Shown: piece after piece, positions 2,817-51,259 of the stretch
Layout: each line of letters begins with the position of its first letter
Numbering within the stretch: position 1 is the first letter of the stretch
Assembly (NCBI GenBank): GCA_002135175.2
Contig: CP022929.1
Span: 21,231-85,230, forward strand
Reading direction: 5' to 3'
DNA from: Candidatus Spiroplasma holothuricola
GTDB lineage: Bacteria > Bacillota_I > Bacilli_A > Mycoplasmatales > MT37
DNA: 64,000 nucleotides
The notes under the pieces: generated by a model
What the model was told of the DNA's origin: nothing
The model's database searches: none
Seen by the model: the letters and a program-made list of their open reading frames with translations, nothing else
Made by a program: the position numbers and the translations under genes

Positions 2817-3293
2817 GTGAAAAAAATTGTTCGAATCGCTAAATTACAATTTCCTGGAGGAGAGGCTCGACCTGGTCCCAATCTGGCTTCAATTGGAGTC
2901 AATATTAAAGATTTTTGTAATCAATTTAATCAAGGCACACAAGATCGTCAGGGTGAAATTGTTCCAGTTGTAGTTGAAGTTTATAATGACAAAACGTTTT
3001 CCATGACATTTAAAACAACTCCAACATCAATTTTGATCAAAAAATTTGCCAATGTAACGAAAGGTGCCAGTCATGTTCGCAAAGACGTTTGTGGAACACT
3101 TACTGAAGAACAAATTACAGAAATTGCCAAGATAAAGCTTCCGGATTTAAATACTCAAGATTTAGAAAATGCTAAAAAAATTGTCATAGGAACAATGAAA
3201 CAAATGGGTTGCAAAGTTCAAACAAAAGAAGAAGTAAAAGAAGAAGTAAAAGAAGAAGTAAAAGAAGAAAAAAAAGAAGAATCAAATAATTAA
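2817..3293 (+). CDS. rplK: 50S ribosomal protein L11, with a repetitive acidic/basic C-terminal tail
   Basis: GTG start. The L11 N-terminus reads KLQFPGGEARPGPNLASIGVN. About 17 extra C-terminal residues (EEVKEEVKEEVKEEKKEESNN) are present. Confidence 0.95.
   Translation: MKKIVRIAKLQFPGGEARPGPNLASIGVNIKDFCNQFNQGTQDRQGEIVPVVVEVYNDKTFSMTFKTTPTSILIKKFANVTKGASHVRKDVCGTLTEEQITEIAKIKLPDLNTQDLENAKKIVIGTMKQMGCKVQTKEEVKEEVKEEVKEEKKEESNN
3228..3281 (+). repeat. 12-nt in-frame tandem repeat (gaagaagtaaaa x3, plus a degenerate fourth and fifth copy) encoding (EEVK)n at the rplK 3' end
   Basis: Three perfect copies were read directly at 3228-3263. Decayed copies continue to 3281. Confidence 0.9.
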
Positions 3294-15765: not shown

Positions 15766-16977
15766 ATGATTAGTAAAAATCTCCATAATGTCAAAATTAA
15801 AGTCATTGGTGTCGGTGGTGCTGGCTGTAATGCAATCGATCATATGATTGAATCTGGATTAGAAGGTACAGATTTTATTTATGCCAATACAGATACTCAA
15901 GCACTTTTAAGAAATTTAGATGCTGAAAAAATTAATTTAGGTTACAGCTTTCTCAAAGGTTTAGGAGCTGGTGGTGATCAGGAAGTTGGCAAAAAATCAG
16001 CATTACAAAGTGAAAAAGAAATTAAAAAAATTCTTGAAAATACTGATTTATTATTTATTGTTTCTGGATTAGGTGGTGGAACAGGAACAGGAGCAGGACC
16101 AATTATCGCCCGTTTTGCTCAAGAAATGAACATTTTAGTAATTGGTGCTGTAACCAAGCCTTTTACTTTTGAAGGAAAGTATCGGAAAGCTACTGCGAGT
16201 CAAGGGATTGAAATTTTCAAAAAACATACTGATTCATTAATTATTATTTCTAATGATAAGCTTTTAGAATCAAAAGGTCATATTGCAGTTCAAAAATCTT
16301 TCCGAGCAGCCGACGAAAATTTAAAAATGGTAGTGGAAACAATCACTTCTTTAATTGCCATACCTGCCAAAATCAATTTGGATTTTGCGGACATTAAACG
16401 AGTATTTGCCAAAAAAAACAATGTTTTTTTTGGATATGGTTCTGCTAGTGGAAAAACAAAAGTAATCGATGCTACAAAGCAAGCCGTTAGTTCTAAATTA
16501 TTAGAAGCATCTGTCAAAGGCTTAAAAAATGCAATTATTAATTTTACCGGCGGTCAAAATACAACTTTATTTGATATCAATAACAGTATTGAATTTCTTA
16601 AAAAAGAAGCTGGTGCTGATTCCGATATTAATATCATTTTTGGTTTGAAAATTAATAAAGATATGCAGGATAACATTCAAGTAGCAATTATTGGAACTGA
16701 TTTTGATGAATCACAAATTGATTATGCTGATCAACAAGTCATTGAAGAACGCCGTCAAACTCGAAAAGAAGAAACAATTACTGAAGATAAAGAAAAACAA
16801 TCATTTAAAGATAATGAAGAAAAAACGGAAAATGATCATGAAGACGACTCTTTTTCTTCAGATGATGATCAAGAATTTTCAAATAATTCTCAGAATTTGA
16901 ATAAGGATGACGAAGAAGAATCTGACACTGAACCTGAATTTGAAGAATCGGACTTACCCCCGTTCATGAAAGGATAA
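15766..16977 (+). CDS. ftsZ: cell division protein FtsZ, with a long acidic C-terminal linker
   Basis: Tubulin signature GGGTGTGAGP and the GVGGAGCNA motif are present. A ~80-aa D/E-rich tail ends in ...DLPPFMKG. Confidence 0.97.
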   Translation: MISKNLHNVKIKVIGVGGAGCNAIDHMIESGLEGTDFIYANTDTQALLRNLDAEKINLGYSFLKGLGAGGDQEVGKKSALQSEKEIKKILENTDLLFIVSGLGGGTGTGAGPIIARFAQEMNILVIGAVTKPFTFEGKYRKATASQGIEIFKKHTDSLIIISNDKLLESKGHIAVQKSFRAADENLKMVVETITSLIAIPAKINLDFADIKRVFAKKNNVFFGYGSASGKTKVIDATKQAVSSKLLEASVKGLKNAIINFTGGQNTTLFDINNSIEFLKKEAGADSDINIIFGLKINKDMQDNIQVAIIGTDFDESQIDYADQQVIEERRQTRKEETITEDKEKQSFKDNEEKTENDHEDDSFSSDDDQEFSNNSQNLNKDDEEESDTEPEFEESDLPPFMKG

Positions 16978-17289: not shown

Positions 17290-19992
17290 ATGAATTCCAA
17301 AAAACTCAATATTTTTGATTCTGGCTTTTCAATTCATGCAGAATTGAAAACTAAAGAAAAAAAATGACAAGAACATTGAAAAAAAATTCAATTGGTTTGT
17401 CAGATTCAAAACCGCAAAAAACCTAAAAAAGTTTTTTTAAGTGGCCCACCGTATGCCAATGGTGATATTCATATTGGTCATGCTTTGAACAAAATTTTGA
17501 AAGATTTTGTTTTGCGATTTTATGCGTTTCAAGGATATGCAGTCGAGTATAAGCCCGGTTGAGATATGCACGGATTACCAATTGCCACCGAAATTATTAA
17601 ACGAAATCCTGAACTTATGAAATCAAAAAATGTACAATTTCGTGATGCATGCTTGAAATACGGGATGAATCAAGTAAAAAAACAAACCGAACAATTTGAG
17701 AGATTGGGTTTATTAATTGATTTTAAAAATCGTTATCTTTCTAGTGATCCAGAATACATTGTTCATCAATTAAAGATATTTTCTAATTTTGTTAAGAAAG
17801 GACTTGTTCAAAGATCTTTAAAGCCTGTTTTTTGATCTTGAAGTAGTGAAACTGCATTAGCCGAAACTGAAATTATTTATCAAAATGTGAATAACAATTC
17901 ACTTTTTTTTCTCTTTCCAATTCAACACTCTTCAAATTTACCTGATTTTGTAAATTCCTTTTTCGTCGTTTGGACAACAGCTATTTGAACGATTCCGGAA
18001 AACAAACTATTGGCTATCGATCAAAACCAAGAATATGTGCAAGTAAAATGAAACAATAAAAAAATTATCATCTCTCAATCAGCTTATAAAAAATATGAAA
18101 TTTTTAAAAATTTAAAAATTTTAAATACCATTTCAGGAAAAAGATTATTAAAGATAACCTATCGTCATTGTTATCTTCAAAACGAAAGTATCGTTGTTCA
18201 TTCCGATCATGTCAAACAATCTGCTGGAACCGGAATTGTTCATATTGCACCTGCTTTTGGAATCGATGATTTTGCTTTAGCTAAAAAACACAAAATTGAT
18301 TTTGAAGTAGCAATCAATGAAAAAGGTTTTTTTAATCAATCAGCCAACGATAAAAATTTAGTCAATGTTTTTTATAAAAAATCAGAGCCACAAATCATTG
18401 AACAAATAAAACAAAATTCTCATTTTTTTCAAGAATCAACAATCGAACATAGTTATCCTTTTGATTGAAGAACAAAAAAACCTGTTTTTTATCGTGCCAC
18501 CTCTCAATGATATCTAGTTCAACTTCCACAAAAATCTCATTTAATTAATAAATGAGAACCCAAATGAGGAAAAAAAAGAATCAATGATAGTCTTGCTGCC
18601 AGAAATGAATGATGTATTTCTCGACAACGTACTTGGGGCGTGCCAATTCCGGCTTTTCAAACAAATGACGGCAAAATTATTTTAAATAATGAGTTGATTG
18701 ATGTTGTTATTGAAAAAATCAAAAAATTCAAAACTGATCAAATTTGATGAACAGAAAAATTGGACAATTTAATTCATAAAACGTTAATTGATAAATATCA
18801 AATAAAAAACCGTGTATTTGAAACAATGGATGTTTGATTTGATTCGGGGATTGCAGCTGAATATAATTATTTTCAAAATAACCAAAAAATTGATTTTATT
18901 TGAGAAGGCAATGATCAATTTCGAGGTTGGTATAGTTCCCTTTCAATTCTCTCTTTATCAGCTCCAACACTCAACATTGGAAAAGCTTTAATTCATGGAT
19001 TTGTCAATGATGAAAAAGGATTCAAGATGTCTAAATCTGAAAAAAATACAATTGATCCAAACGAAGTTTGTTCTCAATTTGGGGCAGACATCATTCGAAT
19101 GTGAGTCGTTAACAGTGATTATTATGGAGATATAAAATTTGGACCCAACATCATTAAAACAATCACCCAAATGTATCTCAAAACCAGGAATACGATTCGT
19201 TTTTTAATTAATAATTTAGTTGATTTTATTCCTGAAAAACACCATCAAAAAAATCTTACTGATTTGGATTTATTAATTTTGAGTGATTTTGACGAGCTCA
19301 TTAAAAGCTATACAGAAAATTTTTCACAACAACAATTTCATCAAGCCTGAATCAATTTCTTTAAGTTTCTCAACCTCGATCTTTCTAATTTTTATTTCGA
19401 TTTTGCCAAAGGATTTATTTATTCATGTTCATCTGAAGATTTAAGAAGGAGACAAATTCAAACAGTATTTAGTATTTTGTTAGAGAAAATAATTATTTTA
19501 ATAGCACCAATAATTCCTCATACAACCGAAGAGGCTTACACATTTATAAAATTTGACAAAGGTCGAAAAAAATTGTCATCAATTCATCTTGAACAATGAC
19601 CCAAACAAACTTTTGATACTCATTTTGTCAATTCTCGAACCAAAAAATATTTGAATAAATATAAAAATTTTTTACAAAATTTAAAAGAAGAATTTTCGAA
19701 AATTTTAGATCAAAAAAAGAAAAATAAAGAAATTAAAAGATCACAAGAATTAAGTATTTCCATTGAAATTAATTCTGAAACTTATTCTGATTTAGATTTT
19801 GATAAAGAATTTTTAGTTGATTTTTTAAAAATTCATAGTTTAAAAAAAATTAATCTTGTTCAAAAAAATAAGCCATTTATTTTTTTTACAGAAATAGAAA
19901 ATTTGCAAGGAACGATTTGTCCCCGATGTTATCGACTTATTCAAAAAACAAATAAAATACTTTGTAATCAATGTCACGTTCAAACAACCTAG
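17290..19992 (+). CDS. ileS: isoleucyl-tRNA synthetase
   Basis: A 900-aa code-4 ORF that I read through completely; it contains many TGA codons and no TAA or TAG. Motifs [21 protein letters not shown] (W = TGA) and KMSKS are present, plus a C-terminal CPRC...CNQC zinc finger. Confidence 0.95.
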
Positions 19993-20453
19993 AAAGTGTT
20001 TTTTTCCCCAAAAAACCAAAAACAAAATTTTTATTTTTTTGTTTAGGATTATTGCTTTTTTCAATTTTACAGCTCATAAAATCAATTGTTTTGTCAGAAA
20101 ACACAAATCTAGTGGTTAACAAGAATTTTCGTTTTTTACCTTTCATTCAATTTACTGATATTGTTTCTTATCTAGTGTTTTGTTCGATCTTTTTTTTGAT
20201 TTTTTTCTTTATATTTTTGTTTATCAATCAAAAATTTTTAGCAGGAATTTTAATTTTGTATTTAGCATCAGCCATGAGTAACTTCATTGATAATTTCACA
20301 CATGATGGAACTGTTGATTATTTTCAATTAGAACTCTTCAACTGAAAAGCATTATTCTTCAATTTAGATGACATTTTCATATTCGTTTCTTTCCTCATTT
20401 TATTTATTTGAATCATTCGAAAATTTTTTTCATATTATCGTGTCAATTCATAA
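19971..20453 (+). CDS. lspA: lipoprotein signal peptidase (signal peptidase II)
   Basis: A multi-TM protein with the motif NFIDNFTHDGTVDYF. It extends through two TGA codons to TAA 20451-20453 and overlaps the ileS end by 22 nt. Confidence 0.8.
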
Positions 20454-28665: not shown

Positions 28666-29646
28666 TTATTTCTCTTTATAAGAATTTTTTATTTGTAAAA
28701 AAAGTTCTTTGGTTAGTTTTGGATTGTTATCAAGATAGAGTTTACTTTTCTCAATACCACAATCCAGTCTTTGTTCATTATATCAAATTCAATTCCCCTT
28801 CTTTTTTAATATATTTTCTTGGATGCCTAACTCCAAAATTTCTCTTTTTAATGACATGCCCTCACCAAAATAAAAATTGAGGAAATCGAATCGAAATGGA
28901 GTTCCTTGTTTGTTTTTCACTGTTCTTACTTGTGAACAAACTCCTATTTCTTGATCGTTTTTTGTTATTTTCCCTTTTCTTCGCAAACCAATTCTTAAAG
29001 AGGCATAAAAACGTAATGCATTGCCCCCAGATGTGATTTCTGGATTACCGAACATAATTTTCAATTTATCTCGCAATTGGTTAATAAAAATCACAGTTAC
29101 GTTCTTTTCTGAAAGCAAATAATTAATTTTTCTCAAGGCTTTTGACATAATTCGAGCTTGTAATCCCATTAAAATTTTTTCCATGCTTCCTTTTTTTTCA
29201 TCTTCCGGTAAAAGTGCAGCCACAGAATCCAGAACAATCAATGAAAATTTTTGACTTGAAATTAGTTCAATGATAATATTGAATGTTTCTTCAGCATTTT
29301 TAGTATTGAATAAAGCTAATTTTTCCAAATTTACACCCAACATTTTCATGTATTTCATATCGACAGTTCTCTCAATATCAAAAAAAGCCACATTTCGTTC
29401 ATCAGATTTTTGCATTTCAGCAATGGCATGTATTGCTAAAGTTGTTTTTCCGGTTGCTGGTTGCCCAAAAATTTCAACGATTCTTTTTTTAGGATAACCA
29501 TTACCACCAATAAGTCGATCTAAAACAAGGCTACCAGAAGAAAAAAATTTTTTTTCATCACATTGTTCAGCAAGAATCGTTGTATTATATTTTTTTACTA
29601 TTTCCTGCAAAAACTTTTGCATTTCACAGTTATCTTTTTTATTCAC
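28666..29646 (-). CDS. recA: recombinase RecA (divergent)
   Basis: The Walker A motif GQPATGKTT is present, along with LIVLDSVAALLP and FINQLRDK...GNPEITSGGNALRFYAS. It extends through two TGA codons to TAA 28666-28668. The start is GTG 29646, or alternatively ATG 7 codons downstream (Met-8 of the listed ORF). Confidence 0.9.
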
Positions 29647-37278: not shown

Positions 37279-38448
37279 ATGAAGATAATCACGGGAAAAC
37301 TTAAGAACCACACAATCAATCCCAAAAAAAATATAAATTTTTCTCCAATTTCTTCTTACCTCCGAGAGGTTATTTTTGATGTTTTTAATTCAATTTGAAG
37401 TTGGGAAAATAAGGATATTATTGACTTATTTGCTGGGACAGGAATTTTAGGATTTGAAGCTTTATCAAGAGGATGTAAATTCGTTTATTTCAATGATATT
37501 AATAAAAAAAACATTGATAATATTAATTTATTTTCAAAAGATAAATTAGAAAACAATCAATATTCAGCTGATAATTTGCCTTACAAACAATTTTTACTGA
37601 AACTAAAACAAAGCAAAATAAAAGTTGATCTTGTTTTTATTGATCCTCCTTTCAAATCTCCAGAAATGATTGAAAATGCGATGTCCTATTTAGCTAAAAA
37701 TCATATTGTTAAATACGGAGGGTTTGCAATTGTTGTTAGTAAAAATTTTGTCGAAGTTAGTGATTCTAATTGAATAGTTGTCAGAAACAAAAAATATGGT
37801 CAAAAAATTTTCACACTTTGAAAATTTAGAAAAGAAGAAAAAATAATATTGGCTCGTTCAAAATCAAAATTTCTGCTTATTTCCGGAGCAAGTGGGGTTG
37901 GGAAAAGTAAAATTATTGCTGAATTAATAGCTGATCAGAGTTTGAATTTAGCCTACTCTGTTTCTTCAACAACAAGAAAAAAGAGAGAAATTGAAATCAA
38001 TCAAAAAAATTATTTCTTTGTTTCTCTTAACGATTTTCAAAAGATTAAAAATGAAGAAGGATTCCTTGAGTATGCTAAATTTAACAATCATTTTTATGGA
38101 ACTTCTAAGGAATATGTTAACAATTTAATGGTCCAAGAAAAAAACGTCCTCCTTGAGACGGAACTTATCGGAGCCGAGATTTTAAAAAAAAAGTTAGTAC
38201 CAATTTACTGAATTTACATCTTACCTCCGAGAATTGAAAAATTAAAATTTCGTCTTGAAAAAAGAAAAACAGAAAACAAAAACGATCAAGAGCACAGAAT
38301 TAAAAAATCAATTAATGAAATCAAGTATGTTTTAGAAAATAAACCATTTGATTTTTGTATTATTAATGAAGAAATCAAAGACTCTGTCGCTCAAATCAAA
38401 ACATTTTTGTTGAAAAAATCTTTTGATTGAAAAGTTCCAAAATCTTAA
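37279..38448 (+). CDS. gmk: single 389-codon ORF fusing 16S rRNA m2G966 methyltransferase RsmD (N-terminal) to guanylate kinase (C-terminal)
   Basis: The RsmD part has DLFAGTGILGFEALSRG and the motif VFIDPPF. The Gmk part has the P-loop ISGASGVGKS, plus SSTTRKKRE and YGTSKEY. I read the junction at 37771-37851 codon by codon and found no TAA or TAG in frame. The TAA at 37844-37846 is out of frame. Confidence 0.8.
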
Positions 38449-39174: not shown

Positions 39175-40206
39175 ATGGATACAAACATCGGCAAAATTTT
39201 TAAAGAACGCTATGAAATTATTGGTGAACTTTCTCATGGTGGTTCATCACATATTTATGTGGGTCAAGATTTAACACTCAATCGCAAAATCATTATTAAA
39301 ATTTTTCTTCCCCAAATTTTTTCAAGTATTAAAAATGAAGATTTATTTTTAAATGAAGTTCAAATCACCAGTCGCCTCGTTCACAAAAATATTGTTAAAA
39401 TTTTTGATTTTTTTAAATTTCAAAACAAACTTTGTTTAATTTTGGAATATGTGCAAGGACCAACTCTCCGTGATTTGATTGATCAAAATCAAGAGTTTAA
39501 CGAAAAAAAAATCGCCAATATTTTTGAACAGTTATTGACTGCTGTGGAATTTGCTCATTCGAAAAACATTGTTCATCGAGATTTAAAACCTGAAAATATC
39601 ATCATTCTTCAGAACAACAAAGTAAAAATTTTAGATTTTGGGATTTCAATTGATCGTACTTATTTAACTCAGAAAGCTGAGTTACAATTGATTGGCAGTG
39701 CCAAATATATTGCTCCTGAAGTTGTTGCTAATCAAATATACACTGTGCAAAGTGACATTTATTCAATCGGTATCATTCTTTACGAAGTTTTATTGGGACA
39801 ACCGCCATTTGATAATGAAAGTTTAGTTTTATTGATGAAAAAACATCTTTATGAACGCATAATTAGAGTACGTGAATATAATCGAAACATCAGTCAACAA
39901 ATGGAAAATATTGTTATTTTAGCAACGGCCAAAAATCCTGAAGAAAGATACATATCAATTGAGCAAATGATAGTTGATTTTAATTATTTGTTAGTCATTC
40001 ATGATCAACCAAAACCAATTTTTTTAAAAAATGAAATTTATCGTGGAGAAATTAGTAATCAGATTTTAATCGACGAAAGTTCAAAATCAATCAATGCCTT
40101 TTGATTGGAAAAAAGATTTTTTTTTCTTCTCTCGATTTTTTTGTTGACACTTTTTTTGTTTTTTTTAGTGATTGTTGTTTTTTTATATTCAAAACAAATT
40201 AATTAA
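39175..40206 (+). CDS. prkC: Hanks-type Ser/Thr protein kinase with a C-terminal TM helix and no PASTA domains
   Basis: Sequences HRDLKPENI, ILDFG and APE (KYIAPEV) are present. After TGA 40102-40104 the ORF continues into the hydrophobic segment FFFLLSIFLLTLFLFFLVIVVFLY and stops at TAA 40204-40206. Confidence 0.9.
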
Positions 40207-40279: not shown

Positions 40280-40516
40280 ATGTCAAAACTCAAAAAAATA
40301 ATAATTCTAATTTTCGTCTGCTCTTTTTTAATATTTTCGGGAGCGCTTAGTATTTTCTTGGTGAATAAAGAAGCTTTGAGAGTTGAAGAATCAAGAAAGG
40401 CAAGCCTCATATTCAAAACATCGTCAGCAAACATCGTTAAAACAACAAGAAAATATCAAAAAAAGCTGATGGATTACATGAACCAACAAACTGAAACACC
40501 AACCCACCAAACTTAA
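40280..40516 (+). CDS. small (78 aa) N-terminally anchored membrane protein
   Basis: An ORF with an N-terminal TM helix (IIILIFVCSFLIFSGALSIFLV) and a polar tail. Confidence 0.45.
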   Translation: MSKLKKIIILIFVCSFLIFSGALSIFLVNKEALRVEESRKASLIFKTSSANIVKTTRKYQKKLMDYMNQQTETPTHQT

Positions 40517-40522
40517 CCTAAA

Positions 40523-40663
40523 ATGAAAAACAATAAAACACGAACGAACCTAACCAGAATAATTTTTACCTTTCTGTTGGGTGTCATGGCAATAATCCCA
40601 ATATTTACACTCGATAACTATAATCCTCAAATCCAATCTTATTCCACAAATTCACTCAAATAA
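40523..40663 (+). CDS. small (46 aa) membrane protein
   Basis: The ORF runs from ATG 40523 to TAA 40661-40663. It has a basic N-terminus followed by a TM helix (IIFTFLLGVMAIIPIF). It is below the track size cut-off. Confidence 0.35.
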   Translation: MKNNKTRTNLTRIIFTFLLGVMAIIPIFTLDNYNPQIQSYSTNSLK

Positions 40664-40848
40664 ACAAGATAAATTTCATCTTTTTTGACTTTAAAGATTA
40701 AAATGGCTTTGTAAATTTTCTTTTTTTTGAATTTTTAGTTGAAAATTTTTTTTAAAAAACTTTTCAAAAAAAGAATGATTTTAAATTTTTTGATTAAATT
40801 AAATTTTTAGTACTTTTAACTAAAAAATTAGGTTTCAAAAAACCTATA

Positions 40849-43800
40849 ATGAACAAAAAAAAAATTTTTAAATTTATTACAAGCTTGGTGACTGTTGGGA
40901 CAATTTTTACGGGAACCACAGTTTTTATTTTTAGTTCACGATCCTTCTTTCTCAATCAAAATTTGTTTGATTCAATTAATTCAAATTTGATTAAACAAGA
41001 AGTCAATTTTAAATCGTTTCAAAATTTTAAAAAAATTTTTATGAAAGTTATTGAAAATTATGAAAAATTTAAAGTTGTTGATGAATTTAAATATTTAGAA
41101 CAATTTAATTTAAAAAACAAAGAAGATTTTCAAAAATTGAACAACAAAATTGACTTAATAATTAAGTATGTAAATAATAATGAAGACAAAAATAAAGATG
41201 ATCTCATTAAATTACCACAATCAGAACAAGAAGAATTGGCAAATTTTTTGAACAGTTTATTTAAAAAATCTACTGTGAATGGATCAACTTCAAACTCCCA
41301 TCCCAAAATATGAATTAATGAATTAATCAGTATTTTTTCGGAAAAAATTGATAAAGCTGAATTTGAAATAAATATTCAAAAGTTAATTACTAAGTTTGTT
41401 GCTGAAAAAATTACATCTAAAATTTCAGTTTTTATGAATTTTAGTGATTTTTTTATGAAGTTAAAAATAACAAAGTTAAATATGACACTACCCAGTAATT
41501 TCAACTATGAAAAATTTTTGAAAATTTTCAGAAAAAGTGATGACTCCATTGGAGAATTTGAATATGAAATAGACGAAATGAAACTAAATAAATTAACAAA
41601 TAAAATGATTAAAATATTTTTTTTATATGATTTTTCCGAATTTAAAAAAGTTATTTCAAAATTAAAAAACGAATGAGATCAAATATTAATTTTAAAAATA
41701 ACTTTAACTGAAAATGATTTGAGTGAAGCTTTCAAATATATTGAAGAAATAGAAGATGAAGAAAACAAAAGTGGCAAAATCACAGAATTAAATACAATTT
41801 TAGACCCAATTACTTATAGTCAATTAATGTCATGATACAAAAAAAATAATGCTCTTTCAACGGATTACATAATCGATACAGATGTAATTGAAAGATTAGA
41901 TAATGTTAGTCTTAATGCCGTAAATAAATTAAATTTGACTACTTTTCTCAATAAAATTAAAGAATTTAAAAAAATCGATAAACAAAAAATTTTGATAAAA
42001 ACAATCACCGATGCTGTCATTGGTGATCTCATCAGTTACGTCGAAACACTAAATCCAACATCCAAACAAAAATTAATTACGAATCTAAATACAAATTTAT
42101 CAAATGATCTAACATATGCATCATTAATTCGGCTTTTAGATACACAAAATAACTATGCAACAAATAATGAAGTTATTAAAAATTTGACCGACATTGAATT
42201 AATTAAATGAGACAATCTCAATCTAACTGATTTTAAAGCCCAAATTCAAAGTTGAAAAGATGAAGAAGAAAAACGCACAACTTTAAAAGAAACACTTAAT
42301 GATGCAAATTTAGCTGAATTATTGCAATATGTCGAATCATTAGATGAATCAATAAAAACAACATTAATCAATGATCTTGATTTAAAACTAGGTGACAGTC
42401 GAACATATGCTAAATTAATCCAACTTTTTGGCGAAGATAATAATTATCAAATAAATAATGATGCGATTGATGTATTAACAGGCAATGATTTGGATATTTG
42501 AGACACGTTCGACTTAACAAACTTTAAGATAAAAATTGATGAACACAAAAATCAAAAAACACTTACAATTGAGCTGGAAAAAGATGGAATAATTGAATTA
42601 ATAAAATTTTTTGAAAAATGAGAAGACAAAAGTGCCAAAGAGAATGAATTGGATGTAATCCTTGGAAATAATGTTAGTTATTTGAATCTAAAAGGTCTTT
42701 TTGACTCAACGGATTGAACTGTTGATGAAAATGTGATAAATGCACTTTCTGGTGATAGTTTAGATAAATGAGATGGACTTGATTTAACCAATTTCAAAGC
42801 AAAAATTCAAGAATGAAAAGATGAATATGAAAAACAGACAATCTTAAAAGAAACAATCAATGAAGCTGGATTGTCGACATTGTTGGCATATGTTGAATCA
42901 TTAAGTGACACTGCAAAAGCAACATTAATTAACACTTTAAATTTAACACTTGGAGATGAACAAACATATGCAAAATTAATTCAACTTTTAAATGTGGACA
43001 TCAATTATCAAGCAAATGAAGTCATTATTAAAGCTTTGACAGGAGATGAACTAACAAAATGAGATAACTTAGATCTAACTGAATTCAAAGCCAAAATTGA
43101 AACACATAAAAAACAAACAGCACTGAAAAAGAAATTAAAGGACGATGGAGAAATTGCTGGATTAATTAAAAATTTTCAAGAGTTTTTCAATGATAATCAA
43201 GAAAAAATCGATGAATTAAATGGTACTTTGAACAATGGTTTAACTTACAATGATTTATTGAACTTATTTACCAAAAATTCTGATGACACGTACTCATTGA
43301 ATGAACTAGCAATCTTTTCTTTAGAGGGAGAAGAATTGACCAAATGAAACGATTTGGATTTAATCAATTTCAAAGCAAAAATTAATGAACAGAAAAAACA
43401 ACAAACACTCAAAGAGAAGCTAGAAAATGCAGACTTAAAGGAATTATTGAAGTTTTTCGAAATTTGAGACGAAAAGGTAACCAAAAAAAGTGAGTTGGAT
43501 ACAGCTCTTGGAGAGAGTATTAGTTATTCAGATATGATAGGTCTTTTTGATTCAGTAGATTGAACTGTTGATGAAAATGTGATAAATGCACTTTCTGGTG
43601 AAAGTTTAACTAAATGAGATGGACTTGATTTAACCAATTTCAAAGCAAAAATTCAAGAATGAAAAGATGAAGAAGAAAAACGCACAACTTTAAAAGAAAC
43701 ACTTAATGATGCAAATTTAGCTGAATTATTGATTTCATTTGAAAGTTGAAATATCAACGATAAAAGCGAAAAAATAACAATGTTAGATAACTTGCTTGGT

Positions 43801-44718
43801 GACGACATCACTTATATAAATCTGAAAAGTTTTTTAAATGCAGAAAATTGAACTGTTAATGAAAACGTGATAAATGAGCTTTCTGGTGATAGTTTAGATA
43901 AATGAGATGGACTTGATTTGACTAATTTTAAAACGAAACTTACGGAATATGCAGTATCAAAAAAAAGAATACTATTAATCATAGAGACGAAGAAATTGAA
44001 AGATAAAATTGAACTCTTTCAAAGATTATTGATTCAAAAAAAAGATGGATATGAAGCTGCACAAACACAAATCAATAATGCATTACCAGAAGGTTTGACC
44101 TTTGAAGATTTGAAAAGTCTGTTTGCAATTGATGGAGATTCTGGCTTTTCAATATTAAAAGAAAATGAAATTAATCAATTGATGGGGAACGATTTGGACA
44201 AGTGAACTGGTCTAAATGGACAAGCAATCATTGATATCATAAATACCTATGATCAGGGAGTGGATAAAGTTGCTCCAGCTTATTATGATCAGATTGATAA
44301 TTTAATTGATTTTGAAGAATTAAAAACAACGTTAAAACAAAATAAAAATACCGAACAAATTGCCAAAATTGATTCCATGAAAATAATCAAAACAGTGATT
44401 GGCATCGACCATCTCTATGAAAAAGTAGTGTGAACATACTTGTTAGATGGGAAAATTTTTAAATTCTGGGTGACTATCGTTGTAGGAAATTTTAAAACGT
44501 TCAATGTCAATAAAAATTACACAGAACTTTGATTCCAACAGGGTGAACTGGATGATCTGGAAAACATTGACACAATTTTGGAAACAAGTGTGATAGATAT
44601 CAACAGACCAAGACCAGAAGCAAACAAAATGAAAAATTGACCTGATGTGAAAAAATACATTGACATAAATTTAAAAAACAAAATGAATCGTTATTTTTTT
44701 GACACATCTCCTGCATAA
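40849..44718 (+). CDS. 1289-aa membrane-anchored/secreted tandem-repeat protein (candidate surface protein)
   Basis: Five track fragments (40849, 41434, 41935, 42871, 43918) all share one frame and are joined by TGA codons. The stop is TAA 44716-44718. The N-terminal hydrophobic anchor reads FKFITSLVTVGTIFTGTTVFIF. About 8 units of ~95 aa each end in ...L(S/T)G(D/E)xLxKW(D/N)xLDLTxFKAKI. Confidence 0.85.
41930..44205 (+). repeat. in-frame tandem repeat array with a period of about 270-290 nt and about 8 units of two alternating subtypes
   Basis: The LDLTxFK motif recurs near 41935, 42215, 42505, 42785, 43070, 43355, 43625 and 43915. An exact 72-nt repeat occurs at 42253-42324 and 43660-43731. 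A ~114-nt near-identical repeat occurs at 42713-42826 and 43558-43671, with a third diverged copy at 43849-43930. Confidence 0.9.
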
Positions 44719-44970: not shown

Positions 44971-45046
44971 GGACACTTAACTCAGTTGGTAGAGTATCTG
45001 ACTCTTAATCAGAAAGTCACAGGTTCGAATCCTGTAGTGTCCACCA
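44971..45046 (+). tRNA. trnK: tRNA-Lys (anticodon CTT), CCA encoded
   Basis: The cloverleaf folds by hand. The acceptor stem is GGACACT/AGTGTCC, the D stem ACTC/GAGT and the anticodon stem TCTGA/TCAGA. The anticodon loop is CTCTTAA. The T arm is ACAGG-TTCGAAT-CCTGT. A T-run follows. Confidence 0.95.
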
Positions 45047-49087: not shown

Positions 49088-51259
49088 CTAAATTTCTAGT
49101 TTATTAATTGATAATTTATTTTCATTTCTGTCAATTTTCATCACCTTTCCATCTTTGAATCGAATCACGGTGTCGGCAATTTGAGAAAATTTTTCATTGT
49201 GAGTAATGAGAATAATTGTCGTTTTGTAACGTCGTTGAATCATTAATAAAGTTTTTAATACTTTTCGTGACATCTTCTGATCAAGTGCTCCAGTAGGTTC
49301 GTCACAGAAAAGAAGATCGGGGTTTTTGGCAATAGCTCGAGCAATTGAAAAACGTTGTTGTTGTCCTCCTGATAGTTGGTAAGAATAAGAATCTGCCAAA
49401 TCACTAATTTCTAAAATATCCATTAATTCATCAATAGGAATAGTTTTTTTGTCAGTTGAAGCAAGATAAGCTCCAATCTCAATATTTTCCCGAGCAGTTA
49501 AGTTTTGGAGAAGATTATAACTTTGGAAAATAATTCCCACATAATGACGGCGGAAATTTGTTAATGCAGAATTATCCATCATTGTTAAGTTTTGACCAGA
49601 AACAAGAACATCACCTGTATCTGCTAAATCAATCCCCGACATCACATTTAATAAAGTTGTTTTACCTGAACCTGAAGGACCAAGAATAACCACAAATTCA
49701 CCCTTCTTAATTTTCAAATTAACATTGTGAAAAACTTTTGTGACGACTCGTTCCACAAGATAATATTTGGAAATGTTTTCTAATTCAATAATGTATTTTT
49801 CTGGAGAAGGATCAAGAGAAGTAACCAATAATTGTTCATTAATTTTATTAGATTTTTTCTTTTGACGATAACGGAGAGTTTTATATTGTCTTAAATTTCA
49901 ATTGTATTCATTGTTGTTTTTGATCAGAGAATCATAAAGTTCAGGATTATCGTAGTTGTGGTAATTAAATCTTTTGATTTTGTCTTTTTGATATCATCAA
50001 AAAAATAATTTGGAATTAATAAATTTTTTCAATGATGTTCACACATTCAAAAAAACAGAAGGTGTTTCGGGAATTGCATCTTGAAATTTAATCAAATTAA
50101 AGAATGATTTTTGAATCACAAATTTAGGAACACCCTTCAAAGAACTAGCCAAAGGCAAAGTACTAAAATCAAGCTTTTTAATCTTAATTTGATAAAGTTT
50201 GAGCTTTGCAATTTTGACAAAGTGTTTAACAAAATATTTGTATAAAAAATCATAGTCATTGAAATAATTTAAATTCAAAAATATAACTCGATTTTTTTCA
50301 GTGCTCCCGGTTGGATATTTGGTGAGTGAAGAATTAACTGGCAGAAAATAAAAATCAAAATTCAAATTAAATCACAAAGAAATATTAAGAGATTTTTTTG
50401 ATTTCAATTCTGGTAAAAACGATTGATTTAAAATGAACTGAATCGGAATTGACTTAGTTGGATAGATTTCAGATATTGAATTTATTTTTTGAACAACAAT
50501 TTCGGGAGAAAGCTTCACTGAAACAAAGGGTTGAGGAAAAAGTGTTGAGAATTCAATCAAACGACGTGAAGCAGTTAAAAATTGTAATTTGTCATTTACA
50601 ACTTTGATAATCATGGCAAAATGGGCTAAAACTTTGTTGGCAAATGAAGTTGATCATAACAAGTAAGAAAAACTTCAAACTTGAACAAATGAATCACGAT
50701 TCATTGAAATTGGTTTAGTAGTTAACAAAGAAGTAACGGGAATAAAAAAGAAATCTTGTTGGGGAATAACAAAAAAAGCAATAGAAAGATCTCTTTGGGA
50801 ATCTTTTTTAAAAATAAGTAGGACTTCTTTGGGTTTGACATCTTGACGAGTTGATTTATGAACTTTCAAAATTCGTTGGGGATTTTTTTGCGGAAACAAA
50901 ATTTTTGTTTGCGAAATGTTTCGAAAAATTAATTGATGATCTTTAATGCTTTGACCAAAGGAAAGTGGATAAAAAAATAACAAAGTTTTACCCGGTTTAA
51001 AAAATTTTGAAAACTTTTTCAAGTAATAAGCAAAAGAATCATAAAAAGTGGATTGCGTTACTGCAGTCGGCAGGAAAAAAAATTGAATTTGATTATCAAA
51101 TGTTCCAGCCAAAGGCTGAGATTTTAAAACAGAAGTGACAGGTAAAAAGACAAAAATTTTATTGGCAGGGTGAAAAAAAGCAATATTTAACGGAAAGACC
51201 GAATTTTTGAACAGAATTAAGTTCAGAACTTTTTTTGATGGAGATTTAGAAGCAACCAT
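49088..51259 (-). CDS. ABC transporter ATP-binding protein (MacB/LolD-like ATPase) with a ~480-aa N-terminal extension
   Basis: Four track fragments (tops 51259, 50614, 50365, 49828) are in one frame. I read all the junctions and found only TGA codons. The C-terminal ATPase has [17 protein letters not shown] and LLFCDEPT. The N-terminal region has an internal repeat: [36 protein letters not shown] versus [37 protein letters not shown]. Confidence 0.85.

Follow-up and report, generated by a model that had tools for sequence, protein, structure and literature searches.

Within the 64,000-nucleotide (nt) stretch of Candidatus Spiroplasma holothuricola analysed here (contig CP022929.1, positions 21,231 to 85,230; hereafter the window), one long gene encodes a protein of 1289 amino acid residues (aa) that consists largely of ten tandem units of about 95 aa. 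We read its product, with a probability of roughly 0.6, as a surface-anchored, acidic modular stalk which would present its C-terminal domain at the host interface and which would have evolved through the duplication and divergence of its units and through sporadic conversion among three paralogues. The initial annotation of this DNA had proposed a membrane-anchored, size-variable surface protein. Its first half has stood, since we again found a single gene read with genetic code 4, an N-terminal anchor and a modular, almost certainly extracellular product; the label of variable antigen is not supported.

The repeat gene is a single intact gene

The repeat gene is a real gene. Read with code 4, the frame contained 23 in-frame TGA codons and one TGG, with no TAA or TAG ahead of its terminal stop; at the given base composition, an open frame of 3870 nt would arise by chance with a probability of about 7.5e-37. 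Assignment of TGA to Trp was also required by housekeeping genes of the window, such as rpoC (7 TGA) and ileS (19 TGA). In addition, a protein of a public collection, P0001, was identical to the product in length and sequence. With code 11 the same frame fell into seven in-frame open reading frames (ORFs) of at least 40 aa. Hence the earlier view that code 4 joins separate ORFs was right as to the single gene of 1289 codons, and only its count of five ORFs was too low.

Ten units lie between two non-repeat regions

We delimited the repeats with a hidden Markov model (HMM), a profile built from the units. Ten consecutive tandem units of 90–102 aa were found (aa 184–1146, nt 41398–44286; Table 1), with an E-value of 2.9e-8 for the first unit and of 1e-28 to 1e-37 for the other nine. 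Tandem units of about 95 aa had been recognized initially, but as about eight copies preceded by a unique N-terminal region of about 360 aa; by the HMM only aa 31–183 are non-repeat on that side. Nor do two subtypes alternate, as had been supposed: across the ten units the order is x, x, A', A, B, A, C, B, B', x, with at least three subtypes and no strict alternation. Conservation was highest in the central units, and the edge units 0, 1 and 9 were degenerate. The motif W-[DNT]-x-[LF]-[DN] occurred eight times with its Trp written as TGA in 8/8 cases, and the conserved Trp was present in eight units. An invariant TGA-encoded Trp at each unit boundary, as first described, is thus true of the motifs but not of units 0 and 1, where the residue is missing.

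The invariant and near-invariant positions of the unit were hydrophobic or aromatic core residues (L, I, Y, W, F), and for this reason a structural module is favoured over an enzyme. The repeats are acidic, with 176 Asp and Glu against 116 Lys and Arg and an isoelectric point (pI) of about 4.6. Residues 9–30 form the sole hydrophobic window of the whole protein, in agreement with the N-terminal anchor first reported. For this single segment preceded by four Lys, the positive-inside rule predicts an N-in, C-out topology and implies that about 97% of the protein lies outside the cell.

Table 1. Features of the repeat gene and its flanks (window positions; aa, residues of the product; GC, guanine plus cytosine)
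Feature	Position	Strand	Remarks
Two tiny ORFs (78 aa, 46 aa)	40280-40516 and 40523-40663	+	one hydrophobic segment each; between prkC and the repeat gene
Upstream spacer	40664..40848	+	15% GC; 8 A/T runs of at least 6 nt, longest 8 nt
Whole repeat gene	40849..44718	+	1289 codons and TAA stop, code 4; product 149.6 kDa, pI 4.78, no Cys
A10 tract	40855..40864	+	codons 3-6 (ATG AAC AAA AAA AAA ATT), K-K-K of the signal n-region
N-terminal hydrophobic anchor/signal segment	40873..40938	+	about aa 9-30; after MNKKKIFK (four Lys); no lipobox Cys
Non-repeat N-terminal region	40939..41397	+	aa 31-183 (about 150 aa); collinear with P0003 N-terminus, 27% identical
Units 0 and 1 together	41398..42003	+	delimited by HMM
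Unit 0	aa 184-285	+	degenerate edge unit, without conserved Trp; E = 2.9e-8
Unit 1	aa 286-385	+	degenerate edge unit, without conserved Trp; E = 1e-28
Core units 2-8 together	42004..43986	+	each with TGA-encoded Trp in motif L-x-G-x-x-L-x-K-W-D-x-L-D-L-T-N-F-K-A-K-I
Unit 2	aa 386-481	+	core, subtype A'
Unit 3	aa 482-578	+	core, subtype A
Unit 4	aa 579-668	+	core, subtype B
Unit 5	aa 669-765	+	core, subtype A
Unit 6	aa 766-860	+	core, subtype C
Unit 7	aa 861-950	+	core, subtype B
Unit 8	aa 951-1046	+	core, subtype B'
Unit 9	43987..44286, aa 1047-1146	+	degenerate distal unit; E = 1.7e-29
Non-repeat C-terminal domain	44287..44715, aa 1147-1289	+	collinear with P0003 C-terminus, 19% identical
Exact 72-nt repeat, copy 1	42253..42324	+	unit 2/3 junction
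Exact 72-nt repeat, copy 2	43660..43731	+	unit 7/8 junction; offset 1407 nt = 469 codons
Near-identical tract, unit 4	42712..42825	+	exact 44-nt and 61-nt blocks; copy 43558-43671 in unit 7, offset 846 nt = 282 codons
41-nt exact copy of unit 4 tract	43879-43919	+	in unit 8
Exact repeat, 72 nt			offset 1407 nt
Exact repeat, 61 nt			offset 846 nt
Exact repeat, 44 nt			offset 846 nt
Exact repeat, 41 nt			offset 1134 nt
Exact repeat, 21 nt			offset 288 nt
tRNA-Lys(CTT)	44971..45046	+	253 nt downstream of the repeat gene, at the synteny break; sole tRNA in the 64-kb window

The unit is modelled with confidence and has no structural neighbour

A single unit, modelled by AlphaFold2 with an alignment of the 10 units, gave six helices and a short beta bridge, with a predicted local distance difference test score (pLDDT) of 88.3 and a predicted template modelling score (pTM) of 0.75. 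The model of units 7–9 with the C-terminus reached a pLDDT of 85–95 in units 7–8 and a pTM of 0.58 overall; in this three-unit model, helices of 28 and 39 residues bridge neighbouring units. The C-terminal stretch of about 120 residues was modelled as helices with a four-strand beta meander, at low confidence (pLDDT 40–65). We then compared these models with known structures by Foldseek: neither the unit model against PDB and BFVD nor the three-unit and C-terminal model against PDB had a match at E ≤ 0.001. Weak cystatin-like and NTF2-like matches of the C-terminal domain were discarded, the domain model being of low confidence.

The repeat family comprises three proteins

An exhaustive HMMER search of 1.84 billion representative proteins with the unit profile returned three matches only, P0001, P0002 and P0003. 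In Pfam, NCBIfam, PHROGs and PDB sequences no family was matched by the whole protein, by single units or by the paralogues; matches such as those to HEAT_2, XendoU and SUS1 were dismissed as sub-threshold noise, and no spiroplasma or mycoplasma adhesin family (ScARP/SARP1 type) was matched in Pfam at E ≤ 1. Similarly, tblastn found no relative among 72,556 plasmids, and the phage collection likewise held none. A scan of the GTDB species genomes with P0001 (the source genome is not among them) was also without a relative, as was a scan of JGI metagenomes with a degenerate DNA pattern for K-W(TGA)-D-x-L-D-L-T-N-F-K, in which one chance match (L003, 17% GC) had no similarity. The initial statement that the repeat belongs to no nameable family was thereby upheld in Pfam, NCBIfam, PHROGs and PDB sequences and in the Foldseek searches of PDB and BFVD. 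This module of about 95 aa, with a confident model and without sequence or structural relatives, is a candidate for a new domain.

The two paralogues differ in their plan. P0003 (1747 aa, 15 units, on an NCBI contig of 280,592 bp) is organized as P0001 is, with a Lys-rich N-terminus, a hydrophobic segment, an N-terminal region, the repeats and a C-terminal domain ending in YFF. P0002 (709 aa, on a contig equal in length to that of P0001) has three units, no hydrophobic N-terminus and an unrelated C-terminal part of about 380 aa. Its linker, EETITEDNGQKTENDHEDDSSSDDDQEF, closely resembles the acidic C-terminal tail of FtsZ of the same genome, EETITEDKEKQSFKDNEEKTENDHEDDSFSSDDDQEF (ftsZ lies at 15766–16977 of the window). 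P0002 looks chimeric, as though repeat units had been joined to part of the FtsZ tail and to an unrelated domain.

An old array carries a few recent exchanges

Listing intragenic exact repeats of at least 20 nt gave five, and all five offsets are multiples of 3 (Table 1). The two 72-nt copies had 0 mismatches, with 0 such repeats expected in shuffles, just as the initial annotation had it. The three near-identical segments of about 110 nt that it described also proved real, although its coordinates were 1–2 nt out: identity to segment 42713–42826 was 96.5% in the copy at +846 nt and, over 82 nt, 92.7% in that at +1134 nt. Exact tracts of 41–72 nt number only four in the gene. Most unit pairs showed about 47–67% nucleotide identity and about 50–60% codon identity at conserved residues, so that synonymous sites have become largely random. 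By the same codon measure, units 4 and 7 reached 92%, and the pairs 4/8 and 7/8 reached 77–78%. Tandem Repeats Finder (TRF) reported no array at unit scale.

Between the paralogues, P0001 unit 6 was 99% identical to P0002 unit 0 and P0001 unit 7 was 94% identical to P0002 unit 1. Identical-residue runs were common to P0001 and P0002 (90) and to P0001 and P0003 (53), while the termini were only 19–27% identical in P0003. Taken together, the pattern points to an old array of diverged units on which a few conversion or recombination events have recently been superimposed, probably both within the gene and between paralogues. Such an array would be neither homogenised nor rapidly slipping, most of its units being apparently old and poor substrates for slippage. 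The earlier proposal that the repeats are substrates of slippage- or recA-dependent expansion was weakened, as most pairs share 47–67% of their nucleotides, exact tracts are few and TRF found no array.

Homopolymer tracts are not distinctive of the locus

The 185-nt spacer upstream of the gene contained two T8, one A7 and several A6 or T6 tracts. Its density of A/T runs was 43/kb, against a mean of 15/kb in other spacers, where the runs reach 8–10 nt. The promoter of the repeat gene presumably lies in this spacer; a scan of the plus strand of 40664–40848 for the sigma-70 consensus gave no match. Inside the gene, a change in length of the A10 tract, which the initial annotation did not mention, would be disruptive: A11 leads to a stop after 7 codons and A9 to a stop after 82. 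However, A/T tracts of 9–13 nt were also present inside prpC, prkC, trkH, ribosomal-protein and other genes, and tracts of the A10 type are not distinctive here because Lys runs written as AAA yield them automatically in this genome (window GC 29.4%). The A/T tracts may be weak points for mutation, but they are no evidence that a switch exists. Accordingly, the T8, A7 and A6 tracts to which a modulation of the promoter had been ascribed do exist, but the switch found no specific support, equal or longer runs occurring elsewhere; a homopolymer phase switch as a specific feature was not accepted, given tracts as long or longer in housekeeping genes.

High-frequency variation of the protein is possible but doubtful

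The interpretation first given, a surface antigen or adhesin that varies in size or phase at high frequency, can be weighed on these data. Repeat number would change by RecA-dependent recombination or slippage, and expression would be switched by the homopolymers of the promoter region or by the A10 tract. Exact repeats of 41–72 nt at offsets of 846, 1134 and 1407 nt would suit such a mechanism, deletion or duplication between them staying in frame, as would a recA gene in the window (28666–29622) and near-identical units common to the paralogues; yet the units are mostly 47–67% identical, with largely randomised synonymous sites and no sign of homogenisation, and a unit-scale array was not detected by TRF. 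The same holds for switching. In the upstream spacer the density of A/T runs is raised about 3-fold, and gain or loss of a single A in codons 3–6 truncates the protein, which resembles the poly-A switch of Mycoplasma hominis vaa (PMC524362), but homopolymers of 9–13 nt lie in prpC, prkC, trkH, ribosomal-protein and other housekeeping genes, and spacer runs of 8–10 nt are common. Nor is the repeat protein a lipoprotein. We therefore consider variation of size or phase at high frequency to be possible but doubtful.

A bolder proposal, which we put forward tentatively and consider rather unlikely, is that the unit of about 95 aa represents a previously unseen fold and domain family from one uncultured host-associated mollicute lineage, whose three paralogues would act as a recombination-driven cassette system varying the length and epitopes of a surface stalk where symbiont meets animal host, and would have evolved as an antigenic or size-variation system independently of those in Mycoplasma and Ureaplasma. 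Modules would then be copied among this long anchored gene, a second anchored gene of 15 units and an anchorless donor-like gene.

A surface stalk is the preferred reading

According to the stalk reading, the Lys-rich N-terminus and the single hydrophobic segment would insert the protein N-in, C-out, the segment serving either as a signal peptide or as an anchor that stays uncleaved, and the remaining residues, about 1260, would lie outside the cell. Each of the ten modules of about 95 aa would fold as a small helical bundle, and the last long helix of each would continue into the next, giving an extended, semi-rigid stalk. This stalk would hold a distinct C-terminal domain of about 140 aa away from the membrane. 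Its role would probably be at the host interface, either in adhesion or in forming an acidic coat or a spacer layer, and Ca2+ may modulate it. The array would have grown by ancient unit duplication and divergence, and occasional homologous recombination or gene conversion between units and among the three paralogues would reshuffle it, altering unit order, unit number and epitopes over evolutionary time.

The open frame, its hydrophobic segment, the ten units, the confident unit model, the orphan standing of the family, the conversion tracts and the break in synteny are observed; we infer surface exposure, rod shape, host-interaction function and any size variation. Several points weigh against this model. 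The orientation of the modules relative to their neighbours is uncertain (pTM 0.58) and the model of the C-terminal domain is poor (pLDDT 40–65). Topology is deduced from one hydrophobic segment and the positive-inside rule, and the unit module seems not to be strictly bound to membrane anchoring, P0002 having no anchor. Conversion between paralogues is suggested by protein identity alone, and the role in adhesion or in a coat is argued by analogy, from no homologue of known function. The surface stalk as a whole is thus a model drawn from sequence and predicted structure.

A secreted or shed effector is an unlikely alternative on present evidence. Here the signal peptide would be cleaved and the repeats would carry a functional C-terminal domain, binding or toxin-like, into host tissue. 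The N-terminus does resemble a signal peptide, with a Lys-rich n-region followed by about 22 hydrophobic residues, but no signal peptidase I site or gene was identified, and many mollicutes leave signal-like segments uncleaved. Similarly, the C-terminal domain is distinct from the repeats and keeps its position in P0003, and the modules of P0002, without an anchor and with a different C-terminal domain of 380 aa, suggest varied cargo; the C-terminal domain nevertheless matches no family or fold.

We regard as very improbable a scaffold or cytoskeletal protein that would lie inside the cell, tethered to the membrane and not exposed at the surface, and would compare with Mycoplasma pneumoniae proteins of the helical HMW2 type. 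Four Lys before the hydrophobic segment place the bulk of the protein outside, and its units are compact bundles, not one continuous coiled coil, despite the great length, the helical build and the high K, E, D, L and N content of the protein. The gene adjoins prpC and prkC, a pair that in M. pneumoniae regulates cytadherence and cytoskeletal proteins; adjacency to prkC, however, was kept in 0/5 relatives.

Finally, a non-functional feature, either an assembly artefact (collapsed or chimeric repeats) or a decaying ORF, is scarcely credible: the source is apparently a draft assembly (contigs of 143,947 and 280,592 bp), repeats are prone to assembly error and P0002 is chimeric in appearance with its FtsZ-tail-like segment, but chance hardly accounts for the intact frame, unit core residues are kept in 28 units across three genes, the unit structure prediction is confident, and the DNA divergence of most units is too great for assembler collapse.

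Comparison with known surface and repeat proteins

We compared the surface stalk with known systems. Two features of the classical variable surface lipoproteins (Vsp, Vlp, Vsa, Vaa type) were absent. The protein contains no Cys, which rules out a lipoprotein; the LspA pathway exists, with lspA at 19971–20453 of the window (PF01252), but has no lipobox Cys to act on here. Vaa is a lipoprotein. Neither did we find homogeneous tandem repeats, the pairs having about 47–67% nucleotide identity and no unit-scale array by TRF. For the dedicated phase switch of this class, a site-specific inversion or a long homopolymer or short repeat in the promoter or 5' coding region, the A10 tract and the upstream T8 tracts would be the candidates, although many housekeeping genes and spacers have tracts as long or longer.

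The Lmp1-4 and Vmp proteins of M. hominis are closer in architecture: they exceed 1200 aa, are mainly helical, carry a signal or anchor at the N-terminus, lack repeats in their C-terminal region and form small multigene families, and lmp has intragenic repeats of about 500 bp, against 270–306 bp in the repeat gene (PMC524362). In contrast, Lmp and Vmp are predicted as near-continuous coiled coils, whereas the units described here are, in the AlphaFold models, compact six-helix bundles joined by helices of 28–39 residues. For Lmp, size variation between isolates is documented (PMC524362). No similarity to Lmp or Vmp was seen via profile libraries (Pfam, NCBIfam) or large-database searches, which returned the repeat protein and its two paralogues only; no direct comparison with Lmp sequences was made.

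Likeness to M. hominis Vaa lies in the modules, which are of about 100–110 aa and of several types in varied order and number, and whose mosaics suggest cassette exchange by recombination (PMC524362). Vaa also has a poly-A tract in its 5' coding region (PMC524362), as the repeat gene has A10 in codons 3–6. The two differ in size and composition (28–72 kDa and 1–5 cassettes in Vaa, against 150 kDa, 10 units and no Cys; PMC524362), and phase and size variation were shown experimentally for Vaa (PMC524362), whereas the A10 of the repeat gene is no more unusual than tracts of housekeeping genes. No sequence similarity was found.

Solenoids of HEAT, ARM and TPR type share with the protein tandem all-helical repeats and a conserved hydrophobic core. 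Their repeat is a helical hairpin of 34–47 aa, however, whereas the unit spans about 95 aa and comprises six helices plus a short beta bridge. The HEAT_2 match in Pfam was sub-threshold (E = 0.016, 15.9 bits against a cutoff of 27.7), and Foldseek gave no solenoid neighbour at E ≤ 0.001.

A further parallel is offered by ASAPs, acidic modular surface proteins of Ca. Abyssoplasma scotoplanesicola, a relative of the Oceanoplasmataceae (bioRxiv 10.64898/2026.08.10.742674). Like the repeat protein, ASAPs are unannotated and lineage-specific, have a low pI (3.9–5.3, against 4.8 here) and are predicted to be almost wholly extracellular (75–99% in the ASAP definition; by the positive-inside rule for the repeat protein). 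They consist of repeated structural modules, of 70–292 aa compared with about 95 aa, and belong to paralogous families that apparently diversify by local recombination; some have an N-terminal transmembrane (TM) segment or signal peptide only, as the repeat protein does, and the two share an origin in one broad clade of reduced mollicutes of marine type. Of the operational marks of ASAPs, low pI, lack of annotation and modular build are present in the repeat protein, and a mostly extracellular position is predicted for it. ASAPs are divided into orthogroups A–F and structural clusters alpha, beta and gamma. The likeness is by description only, since the unit profile matched nothing beyond the three paralogues among 1.84e9 proteins. 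Moreover, most ASAP groups combine a signal peptide with a C-terminal TM segment, whereas the repeat protein has the N-terminal segment only; ASAPs fill 27.6% of their genome and cluster near defence islands, whereas the repeat family has three known genes, this one beside prpC–prkC; and the Abyssoplasma genome has 35.4% GC, against 29% here.

By analogy, M. hominis Lmp/Vmp and Vaa would be closest in function and architecture, and ASAPs in lineage and properties.

Genomic context and source organism

After prkC, the window continues with two tiny hydrophobic ORFs and the repeat gene; tRNA-Lys(CTT) comes next, and then trkH, which is encoded on the opposite strand. The tiny ORFs (78 and 46 aa) matched no family and had no counterpart in relatives, and are candidate genes only. 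The preceding block, recA, divIVA, HU, cmk/der, two unknown genes, ppa, rnj, rsmD-gmk, prpC and prkC, is kept in five relatives as far as each locus covers it, but there prkC is followed by rsgA, pepP and era, or by nusB and nfo. The repeat gene occupies a break in synteny, and none of these five relatives has a gene corresponding to it in position. Its GC (26.6%) and GC at third codon positions (GC3, 20.2%) equal those of its neighbours; hence we regard the gene as native rather than recently imported, and recent horizontal transfer was rejected. The locus, called accessory-looking at first, is indeed lineage-specific, the five relatives differing after prkC, but it is not a recent import.

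Other features of this region were observed in passing. PrkC (39175–40206, plus strand) has a kinase domain and a C-terminal hydrophobic segment, with no PASTA domain in the Pfam scan. The gene rsgA, which follows prkC in relatives L008–L010, is missing at this locus. Two tandem HU genes (PF00216; 31130–31414 and 31419–31679, both on the minus strand) share exact tracts of 20–36 nt, where relatives have a single HU. One 389-aa ORF (37279–38448, plus strand) fuses an rsmD-like methyltransferase (PF03602) with guanylate kinase (PF00625), and the fusion is kept in relatives L007–L011. The gene for ribosomal protein L11 (2814–3293, plus strand) apparently has a non-ATG start, and at its end a tandem 12-nt repeat (3224–3269) encodes (EEVK)n as an acidic C-terminal extension. 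Lastly, in a 723-aa ORF (49088–51259, minus strand) an ABC ATPase domain is confined to the last 215 residues or so, the preceding 480 or so being without a family match.

The best non-self RpoC matches had 53–56% identity, and the next, from Mycoplasma sp. ex Biomphalaria, had 44%. Scanning the GTDB species genomes with RpoC gave only chance 8-mer matches of 37–42% identity, which are of no taxonomic use. PrkC was 53% identical to that of Ca. Oceanoplasma callogorgiae (CP125803.1), a deep-sea coral symbiont of the proposed family Oceanoplasmataceae (PMC11535214). The source organism is thus a deep-branching mollicute, and among identified relatives Ca. Oceanoplasma callogorgiae is the nearest.

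Significance

Large, repetitive, lineage-specific surface proteins are the main host interface of wall-less bacteria, and next to nothing is known of them outside cultured pathogens. The bearing of the present case is limited to one protein family in one organism, and it addresses no long-standing general question; a specialist would expect an orphan repetitive surface protein in a mollicute. What stands out is the lack of relatives, the confident unit model and the mosaicism between paralogues. The known part is the class of large repetitive mollicute surface proteins, the new part an orphan sequence family and possibly a new fold.

The repeat protein adds an example from a deep-branching group of mollicutes, the identified members of which live in symbiosis with marine invertebrates, and its three-gene family shows clear traces of segment exchange. 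Because the in-frame recombination points are defined, size variation can be tested directly. Without variation, the protein would still be a useful example of an orphan structural repeat; if variation is true, cassette-type surface variation would extend to symbiotic mollicutes.

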